DNA of 36,920 bases from Candidatus Undinarchaeales archaeon. GTDB taxonomy: Archaea > SpSt-1190 > JASMDC01. The position numbers and the translations under genes were made by a program. A model generated the notes under the pieces. That model was not told the DNA's origin and made no database searches. It worked only from the letters and a program-made list of their open reading frames with translations. Below are positions 1 through 30,698 of this stretch, piece by piece; positions within the stretch are counted from its first letter, which is position 1; every line of letters starts with the position of its first letter. The stretch spans positions 240 through 37,159 of the forward strand of contig JASMDC010000034.1 of the NCBI GenBank assembly GCA_030753015.1, given 5' to 3'.

Positions 1-3000
1 ACGAGCAGCTCGGCACCAACACCAACTCCGCCGCCACCCTGCAACGTCAACCTCGAAGGCACACCTTACCACATCAACACGCAGGATTGCATCTGCGAGT
101 TCCAGTGCGGACCCAACTGGGTGTATGAATCGCACAGCGAGGACCGGATCGATGTTGGTAATATCTACAAGGACTGTCCCAATCCTGAATCCGAAGAAAT
201 GAATAACGATGAGCCGTTCCTGACGAGCGTGACGTGTAAGTACGTTACGCCGACTCCCGAACCGACGCCGACTCCTACACCTTCCCCAACACCCACACCG
301 ACGCCCCCGACAGATATTATCGTAGCAAATACGGAACTGGTCCCGATAGCTCCGACGTTGACCGGGATATGGCAGCCAAATAACTACCTTGCCCAGCACG
401 GTATCAATCCGGACGACGTCCAGGACATCATACTTAAGTTCCAGATGCAAGGTGATCTGAGCGGTGAGTACCCTCCTTCAACTCCACTTGCGTCCCCGCT
501 GAACGAGTCAGTCTCCTTCTGGGTCGATGGTTTGTTCCTCGGTTATTATGGTAACTGCTATTCTGAGACCCAAGAACAAATACCATGCACGCAAGGTGGC
601 TGTTGTCAGTGTCCACAGACAGAGGTGTCTGTACTAGAGCTGGCACTCGACGACGAGCTCAGTATCCTGGTGAAAGGCACGAATGACATTTCCGGCGATC
701 CGTGCCAACTCGGCGCTCCTTTCCGAGCCGAGGTCATGCTCGTAGCAATTCTAAAGGAAGGTGCTGGAACTGGTACCGGTACAGGTACCGGTACAGGTAC
801 CGGTACGGGTACCGGAACCGGTACAGGTAGTGGCACAGGAAGTGGTACGGGTACAGGGGCGGCTTCGGATTACAATCCCACATACTGCACTGTATTGTCG
901 ACCGGCGTATGGGACGCTACAAATGGCTGCTGTGATACCGATGATGCCTGGTGCGCCGATGATGGATGGTACTGCTACGACGGTCATCGGTCACCGCTCT
1001 CCGATCTTTCGGGCGGTGCATGCGCCTGCCTCTCCCCTGGAAGCGGCTGGGACACAACACGCATGTGCTGTGATGCATGGGATTCTTGGCCGACGGCCTG
1101 TCACGCCGAGGAACCAGGGGAGGACCTTGGGGCAGTGGATGCCTACTTTGCTTCCGGAGCCGGACATACGGCGCTCCTTGATTTGGATAAAGAGAGTAAG
1201 ACCATCATAGATAAGATGCGCGAGGCCTACATGGTGGCCTACATATTCGATGCAGGCGCTGATATTTCTGAGATTAATGCGTTCCGAGGTCTGACCGAGG
1301 ATGAGTATCATACCCTGATCCGGGACACGCTCCGCACACGTGCGGACGCGCGGGTCAAGGAGATACTGGATATGCCCCTCTTCCAGCGCCCGCCGGACCC
1401 GACGGCCGATATAGTCGCACTGGTGAACAACGGCCTCACCGCAGAGGAGCTCGACAAGCTTTCTCGGTACAGCGAGAACCGCTCCTACGTGGCGGTCGTG
1501 CTCGGACGCATCGATGCCGCGAGCGTCCCGATCACGGTCAGTGTGGTCAAGCAGTTGGGGGACGACTCTCTCGGTGACGAAGTTCGGCGTCGCCTCATCA
1601 CGCATACCTGGTCGGTGTTCTCTCGCAGGCTCGATCACGATGCAAAGTTGTTCTCAAGTACCTGCTCGCTGGATTCGGACCTGCGCGCTCTCAACGTCCA
1701 AGATGATATCGACCTTGTGGCGATGGAGTACGCGCAGGTCAACGACCTCCTTGTTCTACTGGAGGACGATCCGGACGGTTCGATGTGCGGGAACTGGTTC
1801 AACCGCGGAGGGTGCGGGAGATGGAAAGCGTACACTGTCGCATCTCGTCCCGTCGACATACTCGCATGGACATGCAACGAACCGGAGTGTACATGCCTCT
1901 CACCGACATTCTCGGTCAATGATGTGCTCACGATGTCGAACGCGTTCTCTCCTGCTCAAGAGTACTCATTCCCAGAGGAACGAGGACAGAGCTGGACCGA
2001 CCGGTTCACGCCGTCCGCGGGTAGGATCATCGTAGAATCGGACGGGTGTTTCTTCCTCCGGATGTCCCAGAAGCTTCCCTATGGGCAATTCGTACCTCTC
2101 GATACCGAAGGGGATTGTACGAAGGTGTTTACAGGTGACGGCTGTAGCAGTGTCAAGGATTATGAAGCCCCCGATAGTGAGATTGTTGCTGAAGTGATGC
2201 CGTTCGATGAGAAGGAGGCGTCGCTCTTCGATCCACCTTGGTGGGACGAGAGATGGTCACACCGTGTTCCTGTCACGATCACCAATGCGGTCGCTACTGA
2301 TCTCACGAATGTGCAGGTCGTAGTACCTCTGGACACTAAGGCAATCATCGACGCCGGTAAGATGGGTTCGGATTGCGGCGATATCCGCGTCGTCGACCAA
2401 GAGGGAGCTCTCTTATCACATTGGGTGGGTCCTGACTGTGGGGGGACAGCGACGAAGGCATGGGTGAAGCTCGCAACCCTCCCGGCATCGGGCACAGTAG
2501 TCTTCCATATCTACTATGGGAACAAAGACGTAGGTTCGATCAGTGACGGCCCGTCCGTCTTCGCCCTCTTCGATGACTTCGAGGACGGTAATATCGACGG
2601 CTGGGCCGCCTCCCAGACACTTAAGGACGCCTCTGGGGAGACCTACCAGGTCACCGCCACCAGCGACTCTGCAGGCGCAGGCACGTACAGTCTTTTCATC
2701 GATACGCATGCCAGCTGCTACGCAACGCCGTGTTGCGGTATCTACGCACTAGCCTCCCGGGACGTCGGGCTCCCTGACGGCACGTACGTGGTCGATCTTC
2801 TACGACGGGCCTGGGGGCAGAGGTGGGGTTACTGTGGTAAAGGTGGTGGAGCATGGGTTCCCCGGTCGTTCGTGCGCCACGGTGATGCGGACATATTCTC
2901 AACGACAGCGACCTATACGAGCAACGAATGCGGGAGCGGGGACATCAACTGGGGCGAGGTGACAACTGATCCTTTCGATGTTACGGGCGGCACCGCCACA

Positions 3001-6000
3001 ATCCGCCTTGTCACATACTCCTGGGACTGTGAGGACGGCAGAGGATGGTTCGACGACGTGCGTGTCCGCAAGAGCGTGGACCCTGCACCTGCGGTCACCT
3101 CTGGCGACGAGGAGTCGCTGGAGCCAGAGAGCAGCGACTGGATTCCATCAAAAGCACCATTCGACGAGAACGTAGTTAACAGCGAGACGTCCGGAGGGTT
3201 CGGGACCGCGCTGGCTTTCGATGGCGTAGATGAATACGTGGCCGTGCCTTCTCATGCAACGATCAACTTCGCAGGGGATGACGACTTCACCCTCGAGGCC
3301 TGGGTGTACAACGAGGCTGATGGGACCGCATCACACATCATCGGAAAGCGGTTCGTCGGGCGTTGCGATCTCAGCCTCTATCTGGAGGTGAAAGCGGACA
3401 ACAAGCTCACGTTCGGCATAGACAGCTTCTCGTGCTCGACGTGTGGTGGCTCGAGCGCTCGTTGCTGGAGCTGGACCACGTCCACAACAGAAGTGCCTGC
3501 CAACCGTTGGGCTCATGTGGCGATAGCGAAGAGCGGATACGACGTCAAGATGTACATCAACGGAAAGCTCGACGCCACGGGCACGCTATCGTCCGAATCC
3601 TACGGCGCCAAGACCGCCGCCACCGAACTGAGGATCGGCCGGTCGCGCGGTGAGCATCCTAATGACGTCGTCGATTATTTCAATGGCAAGATCGACGAGG
3701 TGCGTGTCTGGAACACCGCTCTGAACGAGGGGACGATCCGCGATTGGATGTACAAGACGGTCGATGCGACACACACTTCATATTCCAACCTCGTGGCTTA
3801 CTACCCGTTCGATGAGGGCGAGGGCAATACCGCTGCCGACCTCGCGGGTGGGGACAACGATGGAACACTTATGAACATGGAAGGAGGTCCCGTACTCGTC
3901 GAGGTCGCCGCCGATGTGTGTGGTGACGGCCAAAGGGGTTTCGCCTTCCGGGACAGGAATGGTGACGGTATCAATGACGCGCTATGCTCACCGCCCCCGA
4001 AGACCGGATGCTGGTGCACGGGCCCCGACTGCTGTTGTTGCTACGTCAAGTATCACGATCACGATCTTGGCGCCGTGTACAAGCCGGAAGCGCTCGTCGT
4101 CCAGTTCGCGTCTAGCTACCCGAGCCCTGGGAAGAGCGCTGAGGTGTCAGTGTCCACCGATGGTCACGAATGGACCCTGATCGGCGAGACAAATCCCGGT
4201 TGGAAAGGGAGTCCGCGCAACACAACCTTCAATGTCAAGGGTAAATCCTTCCGATTTGTTCGTGTCAAAGCCACACAAGGGTACAACGACGACTGGTCGG
4301 GCGTATGGGTTTACGAATCTGAACGTCATGGTCCCTTCGACCTCGCGTTCGGCCGTGCGGGTGATACACTGGACACCCCGTCGATCTCTTGTGGTAGCCT
4401 CCCTTGCCGCTATATATTCAAACCGGGGGCGGGTAATCTCCAGGTCGCGACCGACCAGGAACTGAACATCACGCTCCGCAAGCTCGGGACGTTCGAACGG
4501 ATAATCAAGCCGGCAGCCCAGGACATGATCGCGAGCGCTGAGGAGGACCAGATCGCCGTCATCGAGAACCTCATCGCGATTCTCGGCGACGCTCCGGAGG
4601 GTCTTGGTATCGGCCAAGAGCTCCGGGAGATCGGAAGGGAGGCATCTGAGGTGCTCAACCAGAGCGTCGATGTCATTTTCGCGAGCGAGGCCCTGTATTC
4701 CGTCGGTCTGGACCTGAACATAACTGGGCTAACGAACGAGACCCTCGAAGCCCTGGTGAACGGTACATGGCTCGCTCTACAGCTCGATATCGAAGGATCC
4801 CGGGAGGTCATCTCCGACGCGGCCTCACTATCGGATCATGCGGCCCGGACCATCCGTACCAGAGAGAACGTGCGCACGATCGCGGAACAGGCATTAGTGA
4901 AGGTAATCCTTGAACGGGCCTCCGCGGCGAAGGAGGGCCGTCTCGCCCTCGTACTCGGCGCTCGCAAGCTCGTCGTGGATATCTATGCGAGCGTTCTCGG
5001 CTTTGAGGCGACGGCTGAGCTAGTCGCCAAGCTCAATCTCGCTATCGAGGAGTTAAAGAAGCCCGAGCCTGACGAGGCCATCGTCGAGGACGCCCTGCAG
5101 TTCGTACGTGAGAACCTCCCCGAGGTCGAGTATATGGGTTCGAACGTCGTACCCGTCCTCGGACTGGGTCGGGGGGAGCTCGCAGCTTCGGCACGCATTG
5201 CCGGCGGGACCTCTACGGGGATGTCCACAGTCGTAGAACGAATGCAGGGTCTGATCGAGGGGACATCCGTTAATACATCAGTCGACACCTACCTTGTTAA
5301 TGGCAAGCAGGTCTCTGTGTTCACCATGTCAATCGAGAACGAGGGGGACAAGGAGCTAAAGGACGTGGGCATGCCCCTCAAGATCGCGAAATGTCATCTC
5401 ACATGGTTCAACGATGCTAACTTCGACGAGAAGCCGTCGATGGTGCGGCCCGATCCGCTCGTGCTCTGGAACCTCGGCAACCTCAGGCCCAAGCAGAAGA
5501 CCGAGCTCAAGTTCTCGACGACGCGTATCTTCTGCTCGGACGGCTCCACGTGCACAGGGGGCGCCTTCTGCGCGGACATCTGCCTCACCTTGGGACAGTG
5601 CGCGACGTCCTGCCAGGTATGTGGTCAGGTGTGCGACTCCGATCCCGATAAGGACGAGATGTGCTCGAGCGATGGTGGGTGCGTACCAAGGGGCTCGAAG
5701 CTCCGTAACGAGCGGTGTGGATGCGATCCTGAGTGCGAGACGGACAACTGTGTCCGCAGCGTGTGCTGCGAAAAGAACGAGTTCGCTGATGCTTCGGGAC
5801 AGTGCACCGATGTCGTGAACATGATGAATGTAGAAGTGGAAGCGCTCTCGATAGTGCTCGATGACGAACGCGTGATCCCGATCCACCTAATAAATCCTCT
5901 CAGTCGGCTCGCAGACGTGGACGTCATCATCGTGGAGGGCGGGGCGTTCGCTGAACTTTCGCGACAAAAGGTCGCCCTCGGTCCGGGCGAGAAGCAGCTG

Positions 6001-6234
6001 ATCGGGCTCCGTGTACAGGCCCTCCAGGCCGGCACCCATTCCGTGGTGCTCGACCTGAGCTCGGCTGACGGGATACGTGAATCCTTATCCATTTCCGTAC
6101 AGGTGCTCACGGATACAGAATCGATGGGCATCGAGATGCGTACGGCACCCGGTCCCGGCCTACCCTTGCTGACGGTCCTTGCGGCAGTATGCGCTTTGTG
6201 GACCTCCACTGGACGTCGACGCGAGAGTGACTGA
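1..6234 (+). CDS. Very large mosaic cell-surface protein, 5'-truncated (Pro/Thr and Gly/Thr linkers, Cys-rich repeats, DUF2341-like, LamG/ConA-like, F5/8-like and Ig-like domains, PGF-CTERM-like tail)
   Basis: Frame 1 is open from base 1 (TSSSAPTPTPPPPCNV...), so the GTG at 121 is not the true start. DUF2341-type WWDERWSHRVPVTI...GDIRVVD...WVKL...YYGN...FDDFE from 2239; LamG-type ALAFDGVDEYV...FTLEAWV...WAHVAI...YINGKL...FNGKIDEVRVWN at ~3205-3880; C-terminal APGPG + hydrophobic stretch + RRR. Confidence 0.85.
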   Translation, partial: TSSSAPTPTPPPPCNVNLEGTPYHINTQDCICEFQCGPNWVYESHSEDRIDVGNIYKDCPNPESEEMNNDEPFLTSVTCKYVTPTPEPTPTPTPSPTPTPTPPTDIIVANTELVPIAPTLTGIWQPNNYLAQHGINPDDVQDIILKFQMQGDLSGEYPPSTPLASPLNESVSFWVDGLFLGYYGNCYSETQEQIPCTQGGCCQCPQTEVSVLELALDDELSILVKGTNDISGDPCQLGAPFRAEVMLVAILKEGAGTGTGTGTGTGTGTGTGTGTGSGTGSGTGTGAASDYNPTYCTVLSTGVWDATNGCCDTDDAWCADDGWYCYDGHRSPLSDLSGGACACLSPGSGWDTTRMCCDAWDSWPTACHAEEPGEDLGAVDAYFASGAGHTALLDLDKESKTIIDKMREAYMVAYIFDAGADISEINAFRGLTEDEYHTLIRDTLRTRADARVKEILDMPLFQRPPDPTADIVALVNNGLTAEELDKLSRYSENRSYVAVVLGRIDAASVPITVSVVKQLGDDSLGDEVRRRLITHTWSVFSRRLDHDAKLFSSTCSLDSDLRALNVQDDIDLVAMEYAQVNDLLVLLEDDPDGSMCGNWFNRGGCGRWKAYTVASRPVDILAWTCNEPECTCLSPTFSVNDVLTMSNAFSPAQEYSFPEERGQSWTDRFTPSAGRIIVESDGCFFLRMSQKLPYGQFVPLDTEGDCTKVFTGDGCSSVKDYEAPDSEIVAEVMPFDEKEASLFDPPWWDERWSHRVPVTITNAVATDLTNVQVVVPLDTKAIIDAGKMGSDCGDIRVVDQEGALLSHWVGPDCGGTATKAWVKLATLPASGTVVFHIYYGNKDVGSISDGPSVFALFDDFEDGNIDGWAASQTLKDASGETYQVTATSDSAGAGTYSLFIDTHASCYATPCCGIYALASRDVGLPDGTYVVDLLRRAWGQRWGYCGKGGGAWVPRSFVRHGDADIFSTTATYTSNECGSGDINWGEVTTDPFDVTGGTATIRLVTYSWDCEDGRGWFDDVRVRKSVDPAPAVTSGDEESLEPESSDWIPSKAPFDENVVNSETSGGFGTALAFDGVDEYVAVPSHATINFAGDDDFTLEAWVYNEADGTASHIIGKRFVGRCDLSLYLEVKADNKLTFGIDSFSCSTCGGSSARCWSWTTSTTEVPANRWAHVAIAKSGYDVKMYINGKLDATGTLSSESYGAKTAATELRIGRSRGEHPNDVVDYFNGKIDEVRVWNTALNEGTIRDWMYKTVDATHTSYSNLVAYYPFDEGEGNTAADLAGGDNDGTLMNMEGGPVLVEVAADVCGDGQRGFAFRDRNGDGINDALCSPPPKTGCWCTGPDCCCCYVKYHDHDLGAVYKPEALVVQFASSYPSPGKSAEVSVSTDGHEWTLIGETNPGWKGSPRNTTFNVKGKSFRFVRVKATQGYNDDWSGVWVYESERHGPFDLAFGRAGDTLDTPSISCGSLPCRYIFKPGAGNLQVATDQELNITLRKLGTFERIIKPAAQDMIASAEEDQIAVIENLIAILGDAPEGLGIGQELREIGREASEVLNQSVDVIFASEALYSVGLDLNITGLTNETLEALVNGTWLALQLDIEGSREVISDAASLSDHAARTIRTRENVRTIAEQALVKVILERASAAKEGRLALVLGARKLVVDIYASVLGFEATAELVAKLNLAIEELKKPEPDEAIVEDALQFVRENLPEVEYMGSNVVPVLGLGRGELAASARIAGGTSTGMSTVVERMQGLIEGTSVNTSVDTYLVNGKQVSVFTMSIENEGDKELKDVGMPLKIAKCHLTWFNDANFDEKPSMVRPDPLVLWNLGNLRPKQKTELKFSTTRIFCSDGSTCTGGAFCADICLTLGQCATSCQVCGQVCDSDPDKDEMCSSDGGCVPRGSKLRNERCGCDPECETDNCVRSVCCEKNEFADASGQCTDVVNMMNVEVEALSIVLDDERVIPIHLINPLSRLADVDVIIVEGGAFAELSRQKVALGPGEKQLIGLRVQALQAGTHSVVLDLSSADGIRESLSISVQVLTDTESMGIEMRTAPGPGLPLLTVLAAVCALWTSTGRRRESD
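247..312 (+). repeat. Pro/Thr low-complexity linker (TPTPEPTPTPTPSPTPTPTPPT)
   Basis: Degenerate ACN-CCN codon repeat inside the surface-protein ORF. Confidence 0.85.
760..858 (+). repeat. Hexanucleotide (GGNACN)n repeat encoding a Gly-Thr/Ser linker
   Basis: ggtaccggtacaggtaccggtacaggtaccggtacgggtacc... translates to GAGTGTGTGT...GSGTGSGTGTG. Confidence 0.9.
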
Positions 6235-6245
6235 GGAGAAGGACC

Positions 6246-6830
6246 ATGACGCCCGCAGCTGGGACATGTACCGGTTGGGGTGGCCAGAACACCGCGATGG
6301 GGAAACCGTCCGGATTCTCCTATCCACAGCCCACGTATTATGGGAATAATCTGGCGCAGCAACGGTCTGAACAGGTCGCGTGGACACCACCTGAAGAGAA
6401 AGAGAGCGGCGGTTGGAGTGCTGGAAGGATCCTCATGCTCCTCATCATCCTCGTCGGGATAGTGGGTCTTCTCGTCTGGCGGAGCGGTCTCGTCCCAACG
6501 TCGTCATCAAGCACGGGGCAATCCGGTATCGCTGAAGGGGTACACGCCATCGAGGCGACACTGAACAAGAACTCGTTCTCGGTCGGAGAGACCGTCGTCA
6601 TGCAGGGGATGCGTATCGGAGCTGCACCCGGTGAAGAAGAGACGATACGCAGCATGTGCGAGTGGCGTGACCTGGAGCGGGGTACGTCAGAGAGCACGGA
6701 CGCGGCGGTGGACGACTTCGGGATGTTCTCTCACAGCTTCACACCCCGGCATGTGGGTCAGTACGAGGTCGGCCTCTACGTGGGTGGTTCGGTGACCCCA
6801 CAGACGACGCTCACTTTCACCGTCACCTAA
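6246..6830 (+). CDS. Single-pass membrane protein with C-terminal Ig-like beta domain
   Basis: Follows the giant ORF by 11 nt with a GAGGAGAAGG RBS; TM segment ILMLLIILVGIVGLLVW; LNKNSFSVGETV...HSFTPRHVGQYEV pattern. Confidence 0.75.
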   Translation: MTPAAGTCTGWGGQNTAMGKPSGFSYPQPTYYGNNLAQQRSEQVAWTPPEEKESGGWSAGRILMLLIILVGIVGLLVWRSGLVPTSSSSTGQSGIAEGVHAIEATLNKNSFSVGETVVMQGMRIGAAPGEEETIRSMCEWRDLERGTSESTDAAVDDFGMFSHSFTPRHVGQYEVGLYVGGSVTPQTTLTFTVT

Positions 6831-6922
6831 GGACGGCTGCCTCCGTGCACCCCGGTGACAGGGGGCAGGCCAATCGGTGGCGCTTAAAAATCTACGTCAG
6901 ACGTCCGGAGCGAGGGACGGAT

Positions 6923-8410
6923 ATGTCTCAGAAAAGCTTCACACTATCGGGTGTGCTCCCCGCGCTCGTCACTCCTTTCGATAAGGAGGAGGACCTTGAC
7001 GAACCCGCGTACCGCACGCTCATCTCACATCTCATCGACCAGGGGGTCACCGGAGTGGTTCCAATGGGTACTACGGGCGAGTTCTCCAACATGACACTAG
7101 AGGAGCGCCAGCGTGCCGTGGAGGTGTGCATCGATGAGGTGAACGGGAGGGTGCCCGTGGTCGCAGGTATCGGTGACAGCGCTACCAAGCACGTCATCGC
7201 AGGAGGCCTTCATGCCATGGACGCGGGTGCGGACGCCGTCATCATCGTCACGCCCTACTACCTCAAGCCCGGGGCCAAGGGGCTCTACGAGCACTACGAC
7301 ACCATCGCCAGCAAGCTCGAGCTGCCCATCGTGCTCTACAACATCCCCGTGTGCACGGGGCTCAACCTCCCCTGGCAGGTGGTGGAGGACCTGGCCGACA
7401 TCGACAACATCGTTGCCATCAAGGACTCGTCAGGTGACATGAGGTACTTCATGTCCGTCCTGGAGAAGGTGGGCGACACACTTTCGGTGCTCATCGGTTG
7501 GGACGAGCTGGTCCAGCCCGCCCTTGCCGCCGGTGCTCATGGGATGATACTTGCCTCGGCCAACATAATCCCGGACATGTGGCTCCAGGTCTACGATCAT
7601 ATGAAGGAGGGCCGCATCGAAGAGGCCGTCGCCATCCAGCGAAAGGTCCAGAAGTTCACGCGCATCATCGTTGCCAGTGGCGCCCTCGGTACCAAGTGCT
7701 GCATGAACGACATGGGCGTCATACCGTCGGCCCGATGCCGTAAGCCCCTCATGCTCGGCGACACCCTATCCTTTGAGTTCCGCGACGAGCTGCGGGTTGA
7801 GCTGGAGACGTTCGGCAAGCTGGAGAAGAAGGCCATCACCTTCGAGTTCTCGCCCGATGAGCGTCTCGACTCTCGGTTCTTCCGCGTGGGCCTCACTCCC
7901 GAGACCATCAGCGGCTTCGACCTGCGTATCGGCGAGGCGCTGGTGGGCGACGGGAACGAGGTGGCCCACATCGACATACTCATCGGCAAGCGCGACGGAC
8001 CGGTGGGCGATGCCTATGCCCGTGCGCTCTCCAATCCCGTGAAGGGCTATGAGGTGCTACAGGTCATCCTGGAGCCGAACATGGTCGTCAAACCCAGTAC
8101 GATCATGGTCCCCACGGTGAGGAATCAGAGCCTCCGCCACTCGAGCCTTGTGTACGGCCCCGCCCAGGCTGCCATCGGCAAGGCGATCATGGACTCGGTG
8201 GAGGCTGGGATCCTGCCCGAAGTGGAGGAGCTGTTGATGATCGCCAACGTGTTCGTCCACCCGTCCGCCTCGCGACGAAAGCGAATCCATATCAACAACT
8301 ACAAGGCCATGCGCAACGCTATCAGGCACGCCATGGAAGGAACCCCCACGGTGGCAGACGCGCTCGAGCACGCCCGCTCTGCGCGCCACCCGTTCAGGGA
8401 CGAGATCTAG
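6923..8410 (+). CDS. fae: Fusion: DapA/NanA-family class I aldolase (N-terminal ~300 aa) + formaldehyde-activating enzyme Fae (C-terminal ~160 aa)
   Basis: PALVTPF, MGTTGEF, IVLYNIP and Schiff-base IKDSSGD motifs; from 7925 IGEALVGDGNEVAHIDILIG...GPAQAAIGKAI...VFVHP...NNYKA...HPF matches Fae. Start moved to ATG 6923 (GAGGGA RBS; CTTAAAAA box at 6883-6890). Confidence 0.9.
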   Translation: MSQKSFTLSGVLPALVTPFDKEEDLDEPAYRTLISHLIDQGVTGVVPMGTTGEFSNMTLEERQRAVEVCIDEVNGRVPVVAGIGDSATKHVIAGGLHAMDAGADAVIIVTPYYLKPGAKGLYEHYDTIASKLELPIVLYNIPVCTGLNLPWQVVEDLADIDNIVAIKDSSGDMRYFMSVLEKVGDTLSVLIGWDELVQPALAAGAHGMILASANIIPDMWLQVYDHMKEGRIEEAVAIQRKVQKFTRIIVASGALGTKCCMNDMGVIPSARCRKPLMLGDTLSFEFRDELRVELETFGKLEKKAITFEFSPDERLDSRFFRVGLTPETISGFDLRIGEALVGDGNEVAHIDILIGKRDGPVGDAYARALSNPVKGYEVLQVILEPNMVVKPSTIMVPTVRNQSLRHSSLVYGPAQAAIGKAIMDSVEAGILPEVEELLMIANVFVHPSASRRKRIHINNYKAMRNAIRHAMEGTPTVADALEHARSARHPFRDEI

Positions 8411-8443
8411 GATATTCATGAGATAGACAAAGAGGATGATACC

Positions 8444-9700
8444 ATGGACATCAAGGACCTACAGATCACCCAGACGCGCCTCGACGAGGTGAACGCCGTC
8501 CTCACGGACCCTACCAATGACCTCGTCTCCGACCTGTTCAAGCTCATCGAGAAGTACGGTGGCATCGAGGAGATCCGCCGAAGAGCCGCTGAAGCAGGTA
8601 AGGTGAAGAACATTATGCTGCGCCTTGGCGAGATGCGCTCGCCCTTCGTAAAGGACCTGGAGTGGCTCATCGAGCAGAAGGAGAAGGGCGCGTTCATCTC
8701 CATCGATGACTACCGGAAGAAGACGCTGGGCGACAAAGCCGTGGGAATGACCTTCGATACTACCTCGGCGGTCACGCTCGAGATAAGCGCTTGCCAGTAC
8801 TTCTCCTTCTTCATGGCGCAGGCCCGTCAGGCCATAGAAAAGGGAGAGCTCATGCCCGGTCGCTTCATCCGCGTCCGGAACATGAAGGAGCAGGAGTCCG
8901 ACGGCGACCTTCTGGCCATGACCGCGGCCATGCAGATCATCGGCGCCAGCTGGTGCGAGACCTTGGACACTAAGGGGACCGACGGTTCCAACGTGCACCT
9001 GGGTGGTCCCGAGACCATCACCGGCTACTTCGGCGGGGTCGGTCAGCCAAACGAGTACGCTCTCAAATGGGCGGACGAGTTCCTCTACTATCACACCAAC
9101 TTTGGTGTGAAAGAGGTGCTCAACCTCAATCCAGGGACCGTGCTCATCGGCTACCTCCTCTACAGGCTCGGAGTCGATATCCAGTTCAAGATATCGGTGT
9201 TCATGGGCAATGACAATCCCTACGCTGTGATGTGGACGCTCATGCTAGCGAGGCTGCTCGCTCGTGAGGACGGTACGACTCCCCTCATCGGATTCAACTT
9301 CTCCAACTCCGTGGACAACACGACCATCGAGGCCAGCTCTCATGTCCGCAAATCCCTAGGACTCGAGGAGAACGTCAGGTTCGAGCATCACATCACCGAG
9401 ACCTGGAAGAGCATCGTGCGCCAGCCCTACAACCGGAGAGACGAGCTCATGGAGATCGCACCGACGGTGCCCAACATCTCGGCCAAGCACGAGGGCGGTG
9501 AGGTCGATGTGGACAGTAAGCGTGATCACCCGTCGGACATCCTCGACTACTTCGTACCGCGTGCGGACATCGAGGCGCAGGGGCTCATGGATGCAATGAC
9601 CCGTAACTATCTGGACAAACACGAATCGGTGAACATCACTGCTCGGGCACTGATGGAGCACGGCCAGACGTTCGTAGCGGCGACCGAACTGCACAAGTAG
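8444..9700 (+). CDS. 418-aa soluble protein of unknown function, probably an enzyme, co-transcribed with the DapA-Fae fusion
   Basis: 33-nt gap with GAGGATGA RBS; strongly C/G-ending codons like the upstream gene; motif-like segments ETLDTKGTDGSNVHLGG, GYFGGVGQPN, EHHITE, KHEGG. Confidence 0.85.
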   Translation: MDIKDLQITQTRLDEVNAVLTDPTNDLVSDLFKLIEKYGGIEEIRRRAAEAGKVKNIMLRLGEMRSPFVKDLEWLIEQKEKGAFISIDDYRKKTLGDKAVGMTFDTTSAVTLEISACQYFSFFMAQARQAIEKGELMPGRFIRVRNMKEQESDGDLLAMTAAMQIIGASWCETLDTKGTDGSNVHLGGPETITGYFGGVGQPNEYALKWADEFLYYHTNFGVKEVLNLNPGTVLIGYLLYRLGVDIQFKISVFMGNDNPYAVMWTLMLARLLAREDGTTPLIGFNFSNSVDNTTIEASSHVRKSLGLEENVRFEHHITETWKSIVRQPYNRRDELMEIAPTVPNISAKHEGGEVDVDSKRDHPSDILDYFVPRADIEAQGLMDAMTRNYLDKHESVNITARALMEHGQTFVAATELHK

Positions 9701-9727
9701 GCCCACTCTTAGCGGAGCATCGTCCCA

Positions 9728-9745
9728 AAAGGAGGGTATAAATAG
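9728..9745 (+). promoter_or_regulatory. BRE-TATA promoter, copy 1 (AAAGGAGGGTATAAATAG)
   Basis: TATAAATA at 9737-9744, 24 nt before ATG 9769; the identical 18-mer occurs at 10302-10319. Confidence 0.8.
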
Positions 9746-9768
9746 GCCTTGGAGGGCCTAGGATACCC

Positions 9769-10281
9769 ATGATGGCCGACATGGACCTTGCTGACGGCGA
9801 TTATGGCCGGGCGGACGCTGCTGAGGGATACAGTACGACCGACGACCTCTCGGCAAAGGACGTTGGGTACGCCGCTCTCGCGGCAGGTGTCATCGGCGGC
9901 GGTATCGCCCTGTACCAGGCCAACGAGTCAGGGGCCCTCGACGAGTTCAAGGACTACATGACCCGTCCTCACCCTGACGGGCGGGCGATCTCGGCGATCA
10001 AGTGCATCGAGTCCGATTACGCCGACACTCCCCATCACATGCTCGCTCACGACCTGGCCCGTGTTGTCCAGGACTCCGAGGACGGCTCCTTCGGCGACTA
10101 TAAGCCCACGACGACAGCAGGATGGGAGCTACGTAAGGCCATCGAGACGGATTTCGACTATAATCCGAGCCACATGACCGCCTCCGCCGTCGCGAAGTAT
10201 CTCCAGGTGGACGGCAACATGCACGATGGAGACTTCTCCGCGTGGATCAAGGACGGTAACTACATCTGGCACGAGCGGTAG
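9769..10281 (+). CDS. 170-aa hypothetical protein with a hydrophobic segment, tandem paralogue 1
   Basis: Colinear with 10343..10855 (shared ANESGALDEFK, ARVVQDSEDG, YLQVDG, NYIWHER); has its own TATA box. Confidence 0.85.
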   Translation: MMADMDLADGDYGRADAAEGYSTTDDLSAKDVGYAALAAGVIGGGIALYQANESGALDEFKDYMTRPHPDGRAISAIKCIESDYADTPHHMLAHDLARVVQDSEDGSFGDYKPTTTAGWELRKAIETDFDYNPSHMTASAVAKYLQVDGNMHDGDFSAWIKDGNYIWHER

Positions 10282-10342: not shown

Positions 10343-10855
10343 ATGATGCTCGACGTGGACCTTGAGGGCGGGGCCTATGGTCGGTCCGATGCTGCGGACG
10401 GGTATGCTACAGCGGAAGACCTGTCCGGCAAACAGGTAGGGTACGCAGCTCTTGCCGCAACTACCATCGCTCTGGGCATCGGTCTCTACAAGGCGAACGA
10501 ATCGGGCGCCCTTGACGAGTTCAAGGAGTACATGACCCGCCCAAATCCCGATGGCCGGGCCGTGGCGGCCATCCGGAACATAGAGTCCGGGTATACTACC
10601 AAGCTGCACCACATGATGGCCGCTGACATGGCACGTGTGGTCCAGGATTCTGAGGACGGCCATTTGGGCGATTATACTCCGAACTCCGGCTGTGGATGGG
10701 AGCTCAAGAAGGCCATTGAGAGCGGATTCGAGTACAAACCCCAGCACGGTGCTGCCGCTGCTGTTGCCCGATACCTTCAGGTGGACGGCGACATCCACGA
10801 CGGCGACTTCTCAGCGTGGATCGAGGACCGCAACTACATCTGGCACGAGCGCTGA
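10343..10855 (+). CDS. 170-aa hypothetical protein, tandem paralogue 2
   Basis: Same length and motifs as 9769..10281. Confidence 0.85.
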   Translation: MMLDVDLEGGAYGRSDAADGYATAEDLSGKQVGYAALAATTIALGIGLYKANESGALDEFKEYMTRPNPDGRAVAAIRNIESGYTTKLHHMMAADMARVVQDSEDGHLGDYTPNSGCGWELKKAIESGFEYKPQHGAAAAVARYLQVDGDIHDGDFSAWIEDRNYIWHER

Positions 10856-21657: not shown

Positions 21658-22335
21658 ATGGGCCATGGTATGGGTCTAACAGATGAGATGCGCTATCTAC
21701 TACTAGTCTCTCTCTTCGGTTTCTCCGGTGTCATCCTTACATGGGCCCTGAACATAGTGTTCGTGTACCTGGCCAACGAGATCGTTGTTTCGTTGGGTGC
21801 TGTGGGGCGGCTCATCCCGGGACTTGCTGACCATCTGGTGACCTTGGTATCTGGTTCGCTGTGGGGATTCTTCCTGTTCCTCGGTGTTTCCCAGGCTCGA
21901 GGTAAACGACAGAAGACGCACTCCTCCCAATTTACCTTGTGCTCCCTCTCCTTGGGATTCTCTCTTCTGGGCGCGAGCGCTATAATCGAACTCCTTGCAA
22001 TGATACTCCCTGGACTCGTTGATGTCGTCGGCCATATCCTACATGGAGCGCTCCTCGGCTGTCTTTATGGTGCCTTCCTGGCCCAGATCCTGCGCCTTAA
22101 TGTCTGGCATATGTTCGTCCCTCTCCTCAGTGTCGGTGGTGCGGTCGGCGCCTTGGCAGTAAATGTTCTCCAGGATGTTCCAATGAGTTCCCAAGGCACT
22201 GTCGAAATGTATATCGCGCAGTACGCCTTTACGTCCCAAGGATTCGTGCTCGGCCTGTTCGCGGGATACGCATTCTTCCTCTGCGACATGCACATAGGGA
22301 TATTGCGCCATGCTCGGTGGATGCCCGAGGACTAG
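21658..22335 (+). CDS. Polytopic membrane protein of unknown function
   Basis: About 6 hydrophobic helices; TTTATATT at 21628-21635 points to ATG 21658. Confidence 0.7.
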   Translation: MGHGMGLTDEMRYLLLVSLFGFSGVILTWALNIVFVYLANEIVVSLGAVGRLIPGLADHLVTLVSGSLWGFFLFLGVSQARGKRQKTHSSQFTLCSLSLGFSLLGASAIIELLAMILPGLVDVVGHILHGALLGCLYGAFLAQILRLNVWHMFVPLLSVGGAVGALAVNVLQDVPMSSQGTVEMYIAQYAFTSQGFVLGLFAGYAFFLCDMHIGILRHARWMPED

Positions 22336-23663
22336 CTGTATTCTGTGGGTTCTTTCTCCCTTAAGCGTGCGACCTCTTTCCTGAGGCGGTGGACGATCTC
22401 ACGGTCAGGGAGCAGACCACCGGGTGCAGACAGAGGTGCCCGCATGCGTACAGGTACACCATCCATCCGGTATGCTGTCCCCTCGGACTCAATTCCTGTG
22501 AAAGTGCAGGGAATGTACACGTCCGCGAGCTCGGACGTGACGTTCCATACCGGATCGATAACGATGACGGGGATTCGTCGTAGGGCGCCGAGGGACTTGA
22601 GCGGTAAGTGAGCAGCCGGGTCCGAAGCTACCACTAGGAGACAGTCGCACTCCCCCGAGGAGAGGACAGGGAACAGGTCCGTCTCACCCGGATTATAGCG
22701 GGGGTGGCCGCGGGAGAGGTCAACGGCGAAAGGGTAGCCCGTTCGCCAAGTGAACGCCTCACATGCACCCGTGACGTTATAATGGCCTCGCATGGGGAGG
22801 ACCACAGCCTTCGTGTGTTCACTCAGGTCCCTGATGAGGGAGAGGAGGGCGTCAACGTTACGATGACGGCCGGTCGATGTCGTCAGTCCCAATCCGAAGA
22901 AGAAGGCACAGAACTCACTGCTCTTGAGCGTGTCGGAGAGCCAGCGGAGCTCATCCAGGGGAACACCTTCGATGGGATCCGGAACGTCCTTTCCTTGTAC
23001 TAGCATACGTAGAGCGCATAGAGTCTCGTAATCGCTCCCAGGTCGGACCTTGATGAACTTGTCCGCTACTTCAGCCGTACCAGTGGGGCGGACGTCGACC
23101 ACGACCACCTTTCGATCGTCCCGGCCCTTTTCACGGAAAGCACCCTGCGGGAAGACGGTGTAGCGGCTCAAGTGCCGGTCATGGGATGCGGCGGGATTCG
23201 AGCCCCAGTATACCACACAGTCCGCGTGGTTGAGCACCTCGCCAAGTGTCGCGGAGGATATTCCCACTTCCTGGATGGCCTGGATGGAGGGTCCGTGGCA
23301 GAAGGATGAGCAATTGTCGACCAGGGCGCCCAATTCCTCAGCGAGATCAAGCCCCTCGCATATGGTCTCAGTACTTGTTGAGCTCCAGCCGAACAGGACT
23401 GGACGCTCTGCCTTCTCAAGGAGCATTGCCGCTTGTGTCAGGGATTCATCCAGTGTGGCATCGTGGAAGTGGTCAGCCCGGACATCCTTCAAATCTCCGC
23501 TCTTTACCCTGATTCTGGGGACGAGCTCTCGAGATGTTGGCCTGGAGAAGACGTGATCGCCGACCTTGCAGGCATTGCAGACCTCCGTTATCATGTTCCC
23601 CGAAGTACGCACTTCTATGTCGTCACAGAGGCATCCGCAGTAGGGACACACGACATCCTTCAC
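22332..23663 (-). CDS. fwdB: Formylmethanofuran dehydrogenase subunit B (Cys form)
   Basis: CPYCGCLCDDI...C Fe-S motif, FCHGPS metal ligand, YWGSNP...H.RHLSRY, PMRGHYNV, GYPFAVD, RYNPGE, AYRMDGVP. Confidence 0.93.
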   Translation of the reverse strand: MKDVVCPYCGCLCDDIEVRTSGNMITEVCNACKVGDHVFSRPTSRELVPRIRVKSGDLKDVRADHFHDATLDESLTQAAMLLEKAERPVLFGWSSTSTETICEGLDLAEELGALVDNCSSFCHGPSIQAIQEVGISSATLGEVLNHADCVVYWGSNPAASHDRHLSRYTVFPQGAFREKGRDDRKVVVVDVRPTGTAEVADKFIKVRPGSDYETLCALRMLVQGKDVPDPIEGVPLDELRWLSDTLKSSEFCAFFFGLGLTTSTGRHRNVDALLSLIRDLSEHTKAVVLPMRGHYNVTGACEAFTWRTGYPFAVDLSRGHPRYNPGETDLFPVLSSGECDCLLVVASDPAAHLPLKSLGALRRIPVIVIDPVWNVTSELADVYIPCTFTGIESEGTAYRMDGVPVRMRAPLSAPGGLLPDREIVHRLRKEVARLREKEPTEYS

Positions 23664-26319: not shown

Positions 26320-26405
26320 GTGAACCAGCTCAATGACCGCAGTACGCGGTCGTATCGAGAGGTGCGCAACAAACACATAAAAAGCTGTTGGCACCCTTGC
26401 GGTTC

Positions 26406-27302
26406 ATGTCCCTCAATATAGGGCTATTCACACGTAAACTCACATGGGAAAACCAGAAGGTGCTCGTAGCCCTCATCAAGAAGGGATGCGACGTTCTCAC
26501 GATATCTCCCGAGGAGATCCGTTTCGAGATCTCTGACGGGATAAAAGCAAGGCTCGAAGACTATGATTTGACACATCTCAGTGGTGTGTATAATCGTTTG
26601 GACGTCACTCCCGACCTCGGTATGCCCTACCATGCATTCCAGGCGATCAAGTACATCGACAAGGCCGGTGTGCCCATCGTCAACAGCCCAGCATCTATCG
26701 CGAGAGCTCATAACAAGTTCAACACGTTTGCGGCTCTCATGGATGGGGGGATTAGGCTCCCGCGCACCATTCTTGCCCAGGACGTTGTACAGGCCGAGTC
26801 CATCCTTAACCGGAGTGATCTCCCACTTGTCATCAAGCCTGTGTTCGGTTCGTGGGGTCGCGATGCATTCCTGGTAAATGATCTGGAGGAGGGCCACTAC
26901 ATCCTTGAGAACCTCTCTGAACGTGGTTGGTTCCATGAATCAGGTATCCTCATCCAACGGTACATCGACAATCCAGGTAGAGACATCAGAGCTCTTGTCG
27001 TGGAGGATCGTGTCGTCGCTGCTATGTACCGGTACGCGCCTCGAGGTGAGTGGCGTACCAACATCTCTCTCGGTGGCCGTGGAGAGCCTTGCAAGATAAC
27101 GCCTGAGATTGAGGAACTAGCCGTCCGCTCCCTCGAGCTCTTGGGTGGTGAGATCATGGGCGTCGACCTCATGGAGAGCAAGGAAGGGCTCTTTGTCCTC
27201 GAGGTGAACGGTTCCGCTGACTTCCGTGGCCTTACGCGGGCCACGGGTGTAGATGTAAAGGAGATCATCGCCGACTACCTGATCAAGACTTTTAAACGAT
27301 GA
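26406..27302 (+). CDS. RimK/LysX family ATP-grasp ligase
   Basis: NKF, KPVFGSWGR, QRYIDNPGRDIR, WRTNISLGG, GVDL, LEVN. Confidence 0.9.
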   Translation: MSLNIGLFTRKLTWENQKVLVALIKKGCDVLTISPEEIRFEISDGIKARLEDYDLTHLSGVYNRLDVTPDLGMPYHAFQAIKYIDKAGVPIVNSPASIARAHNKFNTFAALMDGGIRLPRTILAQDVVQAESILNRSDLPLVIKPVFGSWGRDAFLVNDLEEGHYILENLSERGWFHESGILIQRYIDNPGRDIRALVVEDRVVAAMYRYAPRGEWRTNISLGGRGEPCKITPEIEELAVRSLELLGGEIMGVDLMESKEGLFVLEVNGSADFRGLTRATGVDVKEIIADYLIKTFKR

Positions 27303-29257: not shown

Positions 29258-29342
29258 TACTCCCACGACAGCTACCGTAGTAAATGCTATAAGCAGCCAT
29301 TGACATGATATATGCTAGGGTGTTGGAAAACCCTCCGTGAGA

Positions 29343-30698
29343 ATGGTACGAGAAGGGAAGAAGAAGGCAGGACGCGAACGTCGATCATCCCCCAAAGGAT
29401 CACGTGATGACTCCCGGGATCACGCTCCTGTTGACGATGCAATCGAGTTGAAAGAGATCGGTGATGAGAGGCCGCTCCAAGTCGTGAACCGTCGGGACTT
29501 CGTGCAGGAAGGGATTACCTTTCTTGCGCTGGCCGGTCTTGCCGGTATAAGCTTACGTGCGCTCAAACCCCCGACGACAGGACCTGATCCGACACTCCAC
29601 CCCCTTGAGGGCCCACCTTCACCCATTCCGGGTGATAGCGCTTCTGGACCGTCACCAGCAGGCACTCCCGTTCCAGGTCTGCAAGAAGCGAGCTTCTATG
29701 TCCAGGCAGCAGGTGGCAAGGTCGCCTGCGACCTGTGCCCTCATGGCTGTGTCCTCTCGCCAGGCCAACGCGGCATCTGTCGGGTCCGGGAGAACCATGA
29801 CGGACGCCTTTATACCCACGGTTATGGGAATCCGTGCTCGATCCATATTGATCCCATCGAGAAGAAGCCACTGCTCCACTTCCTCCCGACCACCACGGCG
29901 TTCTCTATCGCTATCGGTGGATGTAACTTCAGATGTCTCAACTGTCAGAACTGGGAGATCTCCCAGCGTACTCCCGAGGAGGTCGAGCAAGGGGAGTTAA
30001 CCCCTGCCGAGGTAGCCGAGCTCGCCAAACGGGACGGCTGTGCATCGGTCGCCTATACGTACTCGGAGCCATCTGCGTGGTACGAGTACATGCTCGACAG
30101 TGGGACCGCGACACGTGCACTGGGTATGCGGAACGTGTGGGTGACGAACGGCTATCTCAACCAGAGGCCGCTCAAGGAGCTGTGCAAGGTGCTCGATGGT
30201 GCGAACGTCGACCTCAAGGCATTCTCTGAGAAGATGTACAGCGAGCTATGCTCGGGGACATTACGACCGGTCAAGGACACCATCGTGACGCTCAGGGAAC
30301 AGGGTGTATGGGTGGAGGTTGCAACACTACTGGTCCCCGGGTATACCGATGACATGGACCTTTTACGTGATATGTGCACTTGGCTGGTCAAGGCCCTCGG
30401 TCCTGATGTGCCGCATCATATCTCCCGGTTCCATCCGGACTATAAGCTTACTCACCTTCCTTGGACACCTATGAAGGCACTGAAGGAAGCTCGTGAGATC
30501 GCACGAGATGCTGGGGAGCATTATGTCTATGTGGGTAACGTCGCCCCATCCTCCGACATCCCCGATCCCGAGACGACCTACTGTCCGTCATGTGGACAGG
30601 CCGTCATCGAGCGCACTGGTTTCGTGGTAACAAAGTTCGATTTAGAAGGTGGCTCCTGCCCGAAATGTGGTGAATCCATTGCAGGAGTGTGGGCCTAG
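29343..30698 (+). CDS. amrS: AmmeMemoRadiSam system radical SAM enzyme with N-terminal Tat-like extension
   Basis: CDLCPHGC...GICRVR, DPIEKKPLLHF, GCNFRCLNCQNWEISQ, AYTYSEP, HISRFHP, CPSCG/CPKCG; N-terminal NRRDFV followed by a hydrophobic helix. Confidence 0.92.
   Translation: MVREGKKKAGRERRSSPKGSRDDSRDHAPVDDAIELKEIGDERPLQVVNRRDFVQEGITFLALAGLAGISLRALKPPTTGPDPTLHPLEGPPSPIPGDSASGPSPAGTPVPGLQEASFYVQAAGGKVACDLCPHGCVLSPGQRGICRVRENHDGRLYTHGYGNPCSIHIDPIEKKPLLHFLPTTTAFSIAIGGCNFRCLNCQNWEISQRTPEEVEQGELTPAEVAELAKRDGCASVAYTYSEPSAWYEYMLDSGTATRALGMRNVWVTNGYLNQRPLKELCKVLDGANVDLKAFSEKMYSELCSGTLRPVKDTIVTLREQGVWVEVATLLVPGYTDDMDLLRDMCTWLVKALGPDVPHHISRFHPDYKLTHLPWTPMKALKEAREIARDAGEHYVYVGNVAPSSDIPDPETTYCPSCGQAVIERTGFVVTKFDLEGGSCPKCGESIAGVWA

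Follow-up and report, generated by a model that had tools for sequence, protein, structure and literature searches.

In methanogens the formaldehyde-activating enzyme (Fae) is found fused to Hps, a formaldehyde-releasing enzyme. A second link between formaldehyde and an aldol reaction has been engineered: in the homoserine cycle the promiscuous E. coli pyruvate aldolase RhmA condenses pyruvate and formaldehyde into 4-hydroxy-2-oxobutanoate, which aminotransferases then convert to homoserine, and in those parts of a review on synthetic methylotrophy that deal with the cycle this compound is termed a non-native metabolite (PMC8879981). The subject of this work is a gene in a stretch of 36,920 nucleotides from a Candidatus Undinarchaeales archaeon (contig JASMDC010000034.1 of assembly GCA_030753015.1), the whole of which is referred to as the window. 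The gene lies at 6923-8410 on the forward strand and encodes a protein of 495 amino acids (P0001, closed by a TAG stop) in which a class I aldolase of the dihydrodipicolinate synthase (DHDPS) family is joined to Fae. We give about an even chance to the proposal that P0001 catalyzes the reversible conversion of 4-hydroxy-2-oxobutanoate and tetrahydromethanopterin (H4MPT) to pyruvate and 5,10-methylene-H4MPT; the substrate pair, the channelling and the direction of this reaction are those that we infer from the data below. The N-terminal Schiff-base (class I) pyruvate aldolase would take formaldehyde as its aldehyde partner in making or breaking the C3-C4 bond, and the tethered Fae would condense formaldehyde with H4MPT, or free it from methylene-H4MPT, such that little free formaldehyde would escape.

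The open frame that contains the fusion extends from 6845 to 8410 on the forward strand and offers both a GTG at 6845 and an ATG at 6923. The latter is the likely start, since homologues of 495-497 amino acids align from residue 1 of its 495-residue product with a coverage of 98-100%. A TATA-box-like element, TTAAAAAT, was read directly from the sequence at 6884-6891 on the same strand, around 35 nucleotides 5' of the ATG; it is a possible archaeal promoter of the fusion gene, and its position favours ATG 6923 over GTG 6845. Within the product, the aldolase barrel spans residues 8-277 (6944-7753, forward strand; Pfam PF00701, E = 6.3e-77). It is followed by the C-terminal helices of the aldolase and the inter-domain linker (residues 278-335; 7754-7927) and then by the Fae domain (residues 336-491; 7928-8395; PF08714, E = 5e-52), the match of which covers positions 1-158 of the 159 in the profile. 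Likewise, the protein scores above the cut-off of the NCBIfam models TIGR00674 (the dapA equivalog; 238.8 bits, cut-off 206.15) and TIGR03126 (one_C_fae; 179.9 bits, cut-off 118.05). The preliminary description of this stretch, which was made from the letters alone, had read the frame as a full aldolase barrel joined to a full Fae domain starting at 7925; both domains are confirmed by the hidden Markov models of the two databases, and the boundary was found at around 7925-7928.

The motifs named in that description (GTTGE, LYNIP, IKDSS and VAHID) are all present. In the aldolase they are GTTGEF at residues 49-54 (GTTGE at 49-53), LYNIP with Tyr139 and IKDSS with Lys167 (codon 7421-7423), and the barrel also holds KDSSG, GWDE and ILASAN, which are specific for the clade of fusions treated below. 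The catalytic roles of Lys167, Tyr139, Thr50 and Thr51 are taken from E. coli DHDPS. Given the match over the whole barrel and the Lys, Tyr and Thr-Thr motifs, P0001 can on its sequence be counted as a member of the DHDPS superfamily (PF00701). The Fae part contains EVAHID with His349 (codon 7967-7969), which we take to be the catalytic residue, as well as ILEPN and ARHPF. Its alignment with the Fae of M. extorquens (1y5y; 169 residues) covers residues 6-166 of the latter (E = 5.6e-33), and the N-terminal segment GEALVGDGNEVAHID, with the His included, is identical in it. The C-terminal domain is predicted to be a normal formaldehyde-activating enzyme. The AlphaFold2 model of P0001 (mean pLDDT 81.5) consists of two folded domains connected by a low-confidence linker at around residues 304-332, with pLDDT values below 50 at residues 275-279, 304-315 and 328-332.

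The junction between the two domains is not the product of a misassembly, a possibility that had been raised beforehand. A homologue search gave 2547 significant matches among 8000 scored candidates, and in all of the 120 homologues among the matches listed PF00701 and PF08714 occur in one protein of around 495 residues. Moreover, no difference was seen between 6800-8206, a span that includes the junction, and a contig of a DNA run that belongs to another study. Twelve DNA runs, which represent marine and seawater metagenomes of several studies, contain a fraction of 0.78-1.00 of the sampled words of 6800-9800; six of these runs may be the source of the sequence.

The listed homologues derive from assemblies of Promethearchaeota, Hodarchaeota, Heimdallarchaeota, Thorarchaeota and Bathyarchaeia, and the identity between the fusion of the own genome and that of Asgard-labelled assemblies is 61-64%. 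Additional fusion contigs were found for Thermoplasmata, and one is labelled Anaerolineales and carries MurJ and phasin genes. Both NCBI and JGI automatically name the homologues "4-hydroxy-tetrahydrodipicolinate synthase", and in line with this name P0001 could be a genuine DapA for the synthesis of lysine or diaminopimelate with Fae as a passenger domain. Next to the annotation, the score for TIGR00674 and the identity of its best relatives of known structure, which are DapA enzymes (the M. jannaschii DapA 2yxg, E = 2.2e-50), speak for this reading. The residues of the active site speak against it. In the HMMER alignment with 2yxg, 'YNVPSRT' stands opposite 'YNIPVCT', which pairs Cys144 of P0001 (codon TGC, 7352-7354) with the arginine that binds aspartate-semialdehyde in DapA, the very substitution that had been noticed in the preliminary description.

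To define the extent of this change, 126 fusions were aligned, i.e. 121 database proteins (P0001 included) and five that were translated from the loci L002, L004 and L005. Lys167, Tyr139, Thr50 and Thr51 are unchanged in all 126. At position 144 a Cys is found in 107 fusions, Ala in 11, Thr in seven and Val in one, and the arginine of DapA (Arg138) is thus absent from every one of them, whereas it is present at the equivalent position in all nine stand-alone DapA proteins of relatives (loci L010-L018). The same nine differ from the fusions in a whole block of active-site motifs: PYYN of DapA reads PYY[LM] in the fusions, K[ED]A[ST] reads KDSS, SGxD reads G[WH]DE and ISV reads ILAS. A single branch (support 87/92; recovered in 84% of the bootstrap trees) of a tree built from 48 aldolase domains has all 36 fusions on one side, and the nine DapA proteins lie on another branch (100/99). 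The aldolase domain thus appears to be a descendant of archaeal DapA in which the aspartate-semialdehyde site has been lost. The change at position 144, together with Trp193 (present in 121 of the 126), would replace the larger acceptor-site residues of DapA and fits a small acceptor.

The content of the genome points in the same direction. Within its 3.85 Mb (98.9% complete), the fusion is the sole match for DHDPS as well as for Fae, and the search for a separate, Arg-containing dapA that the preliminary description had called for yielded none. There is no match in this genome for dapB (TIGR00036) or lysA (TIGR01048), with positive controls, and there is one for LysW (61.5 bits, cut-off 53.2). 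Based on the lack of dapB and lysA matches and the presence of LysW, the most probable source of lysine is the LysW route or uptake. Considering these data, it is very unlikely that P0001 is the lysine enzyme DapA, to the point that we give the reading hardly any weight, and the earlier claim that the protein does not serve lysine synthesis can be upheld.

The fact that both domains are intact in 126 fusions, and that the fusion forms one clade, argues for a functional link between them. His349 is retained in 125 of the 126, and each position of ILEPN and ARHPF in at least 121, except for the terminal Phe of ARHPF (Phe in 103, Leu in 22). The alternative that one of the domains is mainly structural has to be weighed here. 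Fae is reportedly a homopentamer with active sites between the subunits (the work on 1y5y), and a pentameric Fae might be the scaffold on which the aldolase oligomerizes, or vice versa, with no catalytic coupling of the two. In favour of this possibility, the Fae part can decay in paralogues that occur as tandem pairs of fusions. Such pairs were found in Thermoplasmata-like genomes, in contig L005 (the one labelled Anaerolineales) and in the unlabelled metagenome contig L067 (L004 7992-10892, L005 1132-4658, L029 9303-12188, L030 9002-11682, L031 9431-12339, L036 9504-12383 and L067 3911-6806). In one copy of each pair the His of AHID and the C-terminal ARHPF tail are gone; the other has kept both and carries a deletion of 5-6 residues in the ILEPN segment. 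The complementary nature of this decay suggests that the two copies may form a hetero-oligomer. The single-copy fusions, on the other hand, keep the Fae motifs and P0001 scores above the cut-off of TIGR03126, and a purely structural role for one of the domains seems only a slim chance.

A functional Fae requires an H4MPT pathway in the carriers of the fusion, and its presence, which had been put forward as a check, was borne out. We surveyed 401 archaeal genomes, i.e. the genome of the window (G000) and 400 relatives, most of which are labelled 'same domain'. A match over both domains was recovered in 15 of these (G000, G001, G114, G135, G155, G174, G193, G269, G307, G326, G330, G345, G363, G385 and G399), which represent six GTDB families; the best matches in the other genomes had E-values of 8.4e-66 or weaker and concerned single domains. 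The mch gene, which serves as a marker of the pathway, is present in 137 of the 401 genomes and in 15 of the 15 with the fusion, although, as related genomes are not independent, this co-occurrence is a consistency check and not a statistic. The own genome has mch and two mtd genes, and the window itself contains fwdB, a marker for the H4MPT/methanofuran route of C1 metabolism that encodes subunit B of formylmethanofuran dehydrogenase, at 22332-23663 on the reverse strand (TIGR03129, 510.6 bits, cut-off 327.8). Judged by this gene content, the host can be taken to use the H4MPT route.

The genome is of unusual size for its assigned class: it measures 3.85 Mb and that of its sole congener 3.6 Mb, as against 0.6-1.2 Mb for the other sampled members of the class. 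A contig that is 96% identical carries the label Undinarchaeota. Either the lineage is very atypical or its class placement is doubtful.

The fusion is accompanied by a second gene. P0122 (418 amino acids; 8444-9700, forward strand) starts 33 nucleotides past the stop of the fusion, behind the purine-rich sequence AGAGGA. Metatranscriptome contigs from three libraries of two studies match the fusion (7118-7309, 8069-8297 and 8120-8286) as well as P0122 (8515-8665, 8683-8833, 8838-8988 and 9054-9204) with 100% identity; these contigs represent parts of both genes only and leave the intergenic gap uncovered, and DNA carry-over is possible. For P0122 no match was found in Pfam (E-values up to 10), NCBIfam, PADLOC or the sequences of the PDB, a profile search of the PDB included, and the ESM Atlas gave no usable feature match. 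All 8000 of 8000 scored candidates in the homologue search were significant. Outside the genus the identity is around 69-74% among the matches listed, and down to 59% in the genome survey. At 50% clustering the 457 matches form essentially one cluster plus fragments, with no distant named relatives. The AlphaFold2 model, based on an alignment of 36 sequences (pLDDT 89.7), shows a TIM barrel preceded by a helical part at the N-terminus. Foldseek returned weak matches to class II aldolase, lysine 5,6-aminomutase and sugar epimerase (TM-scores 0.26-0.54), and VIA-align a flat list of unrelated TIM barrels (Z 10.5-12.4). By sequence P0122 thus appears to represent an unannotated, highly conserved family of putative enzymes, which is linked to the fusion here for the first time.

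In the survey P0122 was found in 14 of the 401 genomes (partial in one), and 12 of these 14 also have the fusion. P0122 directly adjoins the fusion in G000, G001, G155 and G363, in the locus L002 and in five metagenome loci; in G399 a distance of 1.5 kb separates them, and in one Bathyarchaeia contig they are neighbours in divergent orientation. The predicted complex of the fusion and P0122 had an ipSAE of 0.00 in two runs without controls, a value that speaks neither for nor against binding. A role of P0122 as a substitute homoserine kinase was rejected for the own genome, as thrB (180.6 bits, cut-off 168.25) and thrC lie beside hom on contig C11.

To obtain clues about the function of P0122, 80 metagenome loci (L037-L116) were collected, open reading frames were called with a simple in-house caller (the full P0122 frame was recovered in 74), and the neighbours were clustered and their representatives annotated. 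Homoserine dehydrogenase was found in 24 of the 80 loci, mostly directly downstream (NF004912, 423.6 bits, cut-off 373), and aldehyde:ferredoxin oxidoreductase (AOR) in 21. A class I/II aminotransferase occurred in 18 loci (19 proteins) and was nearest to archaeal aspartate aminotransferase, though below its cut-off. In 13-18 loci, subunits of a pyruvate/2-oxoisovalerate-type ferredoxin oxidoreductase and a gene resembling that of a thiamine-binding protein lie divergent to P0122. P0122, hom, AOR and the aminotransferase occur together, in varied orders, in L080, L099, L101, L107 and L033; the last belongs to G250, a genome without a match for the fusion or mch. Many P0122 loci keep catabolic company, in the form of oxidoreductase and acyl-CoA synthetase genes. 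In three loci, a stand-alone DHDPS that is distant and not of the DapA type, followed by AOR, lies beside P0122. Based on the above, P0122 is tied, in different lineages, to two sets of enzymes: those that add or remove C1 units or aldehydes on 2-oxoacids (PanB, DHDPS-Fae, DHDPS plus AOR), and the aminotransferase, Hom and AOR, by which 2-oxoacids, homoserine, aspartate semialdehyde and aspartate are interconverted. The clustering with the aminotransferase and homoserine dehydrogenase fits the proposed chemistry of 4-hydroxy-2-oxobutanoate and homoserine.

The neighbourhood with PanB calls for a different reading as well. PanB (TIGR00222, 332 bits, cut-off 207.55) occurs beside P0122 in 19 of the 80 loci, and in 14 of these it lies upstream in the same orientation; its position is comparable to that of the fusion in other loci. 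P0001 could then be an H4MPT-dependent, non-orthologous ketopantoate hydroxymethyltransferase that converts 2-oxoisovalerate and methylene-H4MPT to ketopantoate, or that hydroxymethylates a different branched 2-oxoacid. It would then work in place of PanB or alongside it, and P0122 would be the next enzyme of the pantoate pathway. PanB was indeed not found in the own genome, the search was negative for six of the 15 genomes with the fusion, and the two methanogen control genomes lack it as well. With PanB in the remaining 9 of the 15, however, the two distributions are not complementary. In addition, no match for PanE/ApbA, PanC or the archaeal phosphopantothenate synthetase was found in the 98.9% complete genome, which leaves no known pantoate user; the organism may take its pantothenate from outside or use unknown enzymes. 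The presence of the fusion in 15 of 401 genomes is also too patchy for an essential step towards CoA, and sites of the DHDPS family normally accept pyruvate, which would make a tertiary-carbon nucleophile unusual. The replacement of PanB is weakened in particular by its presence in nine fusion genomes and by the missing PanE, phosphopantothenate synthetase and PanC in the own genome, and we consider a role of this kind rather improbable.

Another alternative leaves both activities in place and loosens their coupling. The aldolase might handle a different 4-hydroxy-2-oxo acid or a 2-keto-3-deoxy acid and release, for instance, glycolaldehyde, glyoxylate or another small aldehyde, and Fae could be a housekeeping function, either for formaldehyde that stems from Hps (by the ribulose-monophosphate route in reverse) or from the surroundings, or could act on another aldehyde. 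An Hps-type gene without the Fae part is in fact present in the genome and the only Fae is that of the fusion. The Hps-type frame of 366 amino acids (contig C28, 31909-33006; 1033-2130 in locus L125) aligns through residues 149-364 with the Hps portion of NF009833, the Fae-Hps model, at 272.1 bits just below the cut-off of 274; its N-terminal stretch of around 148 residues is not Fae, or lies upstream of the true start. Judged by sequence, Hps and Fae in this organism thus reside in different proteins than in methanogens. The three loci in which the stand-alone DHDPS pairs with AOR suggest a relation of P0122 to aldehydes in general, but this DHDPS sits on a distant branch of the tree (length 2.18). 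Published work on Bathyarchaeia also treats fae as a marker of formaldehyde detoxification or utilization, and a fusion with fae is not mentioned in the parts of these studies considered here (PMC10321748, PMC11631310). On the other side stand the conservation of both domains in 126 fusions and the single clade that the fusion forms, as well as position 144 and Trp193, which by our reasoning fit a small acceptor. On balance, we regard the loosely coupled alternative as unlikely, although it deserves to be kept in mind.

The proposal of a reaction with 4-hydroxy-2-oxobutanoate draws on the joining of the aldolase to Fae, on a larger acceptor site that has been lost and on the homoserine-related neighbours of P0122, and to this extent the interpretation given in the preliminary description, a pyruvate/formaldehyde aldolase that hands formaldehyde to H4MPT, is partly supported. 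An aminotransferase would connect the C4 product to homoserine, homoserine dehydrogenase would connect homoserine to the aspartate family, and P0122 would act at the same metabolic node. With respect to the direction, cleavage is suggested by the analogy to Fae-Hps, by the pairs of DHDPS and AOR and by the catabolic company of the P0122 loci. If the synthesis direction were true, the reaction would provide an ATP-free route from the methyl branch of the Wood-Ljungdahl pathway to the aspartate family. An extension of the latter is that the fusion forms the entry of a natural 'homoserine shunt' in archaea with an H4MPT methyl branch (Asgard, Bathyarchaeia, Thermoplasmata-like lineages and this marine archaeon). 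Pyruvate and methylene-H4MPT would be converted to 4-hydroxy-2-oxobutanoate without ATP or carboxylation, and onward to homoserine and, via homoserine dehydrogenase and AOR, to aspartate; possibly the shunt runs in reverse, from C4 amino acids to the C1 pool, with P0122 as a new enzyme family at the node. We offer this extension as a doubtful one.

Several observations weigh against the proposed reaction. The acceptor aldehyde is one that we infer solely from the fusion partner, and the dapA equivalog model TIGR00674 still scores P0001 above its cut-off. The genome contains a full classical route, with two aspartate kinases, asd (TIGR00978, 426 bits, cut-off 301) and a hom-thrC-thrB cluster. 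Given that the route from aspartate to homoserine is complete, the fusion is not required for homoserine and there is no gap for it to fill; the idea that it is the sole homoserine route was rejected on account of the two aspartate kinases, asd and hom. Neither a source nor a sink of 4-hydroxy-2-oxobutanoate was identified in the own genome, where Hom, the aminotransferases and an AOR-like gene are located on other contigs, and the Hps-type gene is a possible other source of formaldehyde for the sole Fae domain. Similarly, the connection with P0122 is not a strict one. The fusion adjoins P0122 in only 5 of the 80 metagenome loci (directly downstream in each of these, and as a tandem pair in three), the two genes lie on different contigs in the family f63 (7 genomes), and the association between P0122 and PanB also admits an interpretation in terms of pantoate.

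Some further genes of the window stand out. Just downstream of P0122 lie two tandem paralogous frames of 170 amino acids (9769-10281 and 10343-10855, forward strand), the first of which has no match in Pfam or NCBIfam. Both are kept in a contig of the same genus (L001), with 95% identity to the counterpart and 68-70% to the other paralogue. Upstream of the fusion, a frame of at least 2037 amino acids (1-6234, forward strand) that is open at its 5' end contains a run of Gly-Thr/Gly-Ser repeats and many Cys-rich stretches; in L025, a frame of 2032 amino acids without a Pfam match adjoins the fusion on the opposite strand. A few kb from fwdB, a RimK-family ATP-grasp ligase is encoded (26388-27299, forward strand), whose scores with LysX (209.7 bits, cut-off 275.6) and with MptN, the tetrahydromethanopterin:glutamate ligase (209 bits, cut-off 350), are nearly the same and both below the cut-off; an M20 peptidase follows it. 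Finally, a radical SAM enzyme of the AmmeMemoRadiSam system is found at 29337-30695 on the forward strand (TIGR04337, 367.8 bits, cut-off 220).

As far as our literature searches reach, the architecture is common in databases, misnamed and undescribed. Full-text searches yielded no description of a DHDPS/DapA-Fae fusion, in agreement with the earlier statement that no characterized example was known, although supplementary gene tables for Asgard archaea and Bathyarchaeia, which lie outside the search, may list the gene. The opinion article of Chistoserdova (2016) mentions neither Fae, nor a fusion, nor dihydrodipicolinate. Because of the automatic name, metabolic reconstructions for Asgard archaea, Bathyarchaeia and Thermoplasmata probably count a false dapA, together with a fae that is wrongly taken as free-standing. 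On sequence grounds the fusion can be described as Fae joined to a putative formaldehyde-handling lyase, accompanied by the new partner family P0122. If the proposed reaction is true, P0001 would be the first carrier-linked pyruvate/formaldehyde aldolase of natural origin, the methyl branch of the Wood-Ljungdahl pathway would be tied directly to C3/C4 metabolism, and 4-hydroxy-2-oxobutanoate would become a natural intermediate. If the homoserine shunt is true in addition, the engineered homoserine cycle would have its counterpart in nature, and C1 assimilation or anaplerosis would gain a new route. P0122 forms a second lead, as its gene neighbours provide concrete candidate substrates.

When set against the known systems, P0001 resembles the Fae-Hps of methanogens in design: both connect Fae to a carbon-carbon lyase with formaldehyde as the (in P0001 putative) aldehyde partner, and both occur in users of H4MPT. 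Yet only the Fae half of the model NF009833 matches P0001 (residues 334-491 on model positions 2-161 of 392), and with a whole-protein score of 141.3 bits, against the cut-off of 274, P0001 is not a member of that family. Fae is C-terminal in P0001 and forms the first part of the Fae-Hps model, the partner is a class I pyruvate aldolase of the DHDPS family whereas Hps has the orotidine monophosphate decarboxylase fold, and the carbon skeleton would be a 2-oxoacid instead of a sugar phosphate. With DapA, P0001 shares the fold, the Schiff-base Lys, the Tyr and the Thr-Thr pair, a TIGR00674 score above the cut-off, the closest solved structures and, for the aldolase domain, the position beside archaeal DapA in the tree. 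It differs from DapA by the loss of the Arg of the aspartate-semialdehyde site, by the changes in PYYN, KEA, SGxD and ISV, by the fusion to Fae and by a genome without a match for dapB or lysA.

For the proposed reaction itself, the parallels lie elsewhere. The homoserine cycle with RhmA uses the same chemistry, but RhmA is a metal-dependent (class II) enzyme that takes free formaldehyde in a synthetic pathway, whereas P0001 is a natural class I enzyme tethered to a C1 carrier system. PanB, which uses methylene-tetrahydrofolate and a metal, is alike in the carrier-dependent transfer of a hydroxymethyl group to a 2-oxoacid and takes a comparable position beside the P0122 family in other lineages. 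There is no sequence relation between the two, as neither P0001 nor its genome has a match for PF02548 or TIGR00222, and the distribution of PanB overlaps with that of the fusion instead of complementing it. Serine hydroxymethyltransferase, also a carrier-dependent hydroxymethyl transferase, would be a functional analogue of the reaction proposed for P0001.

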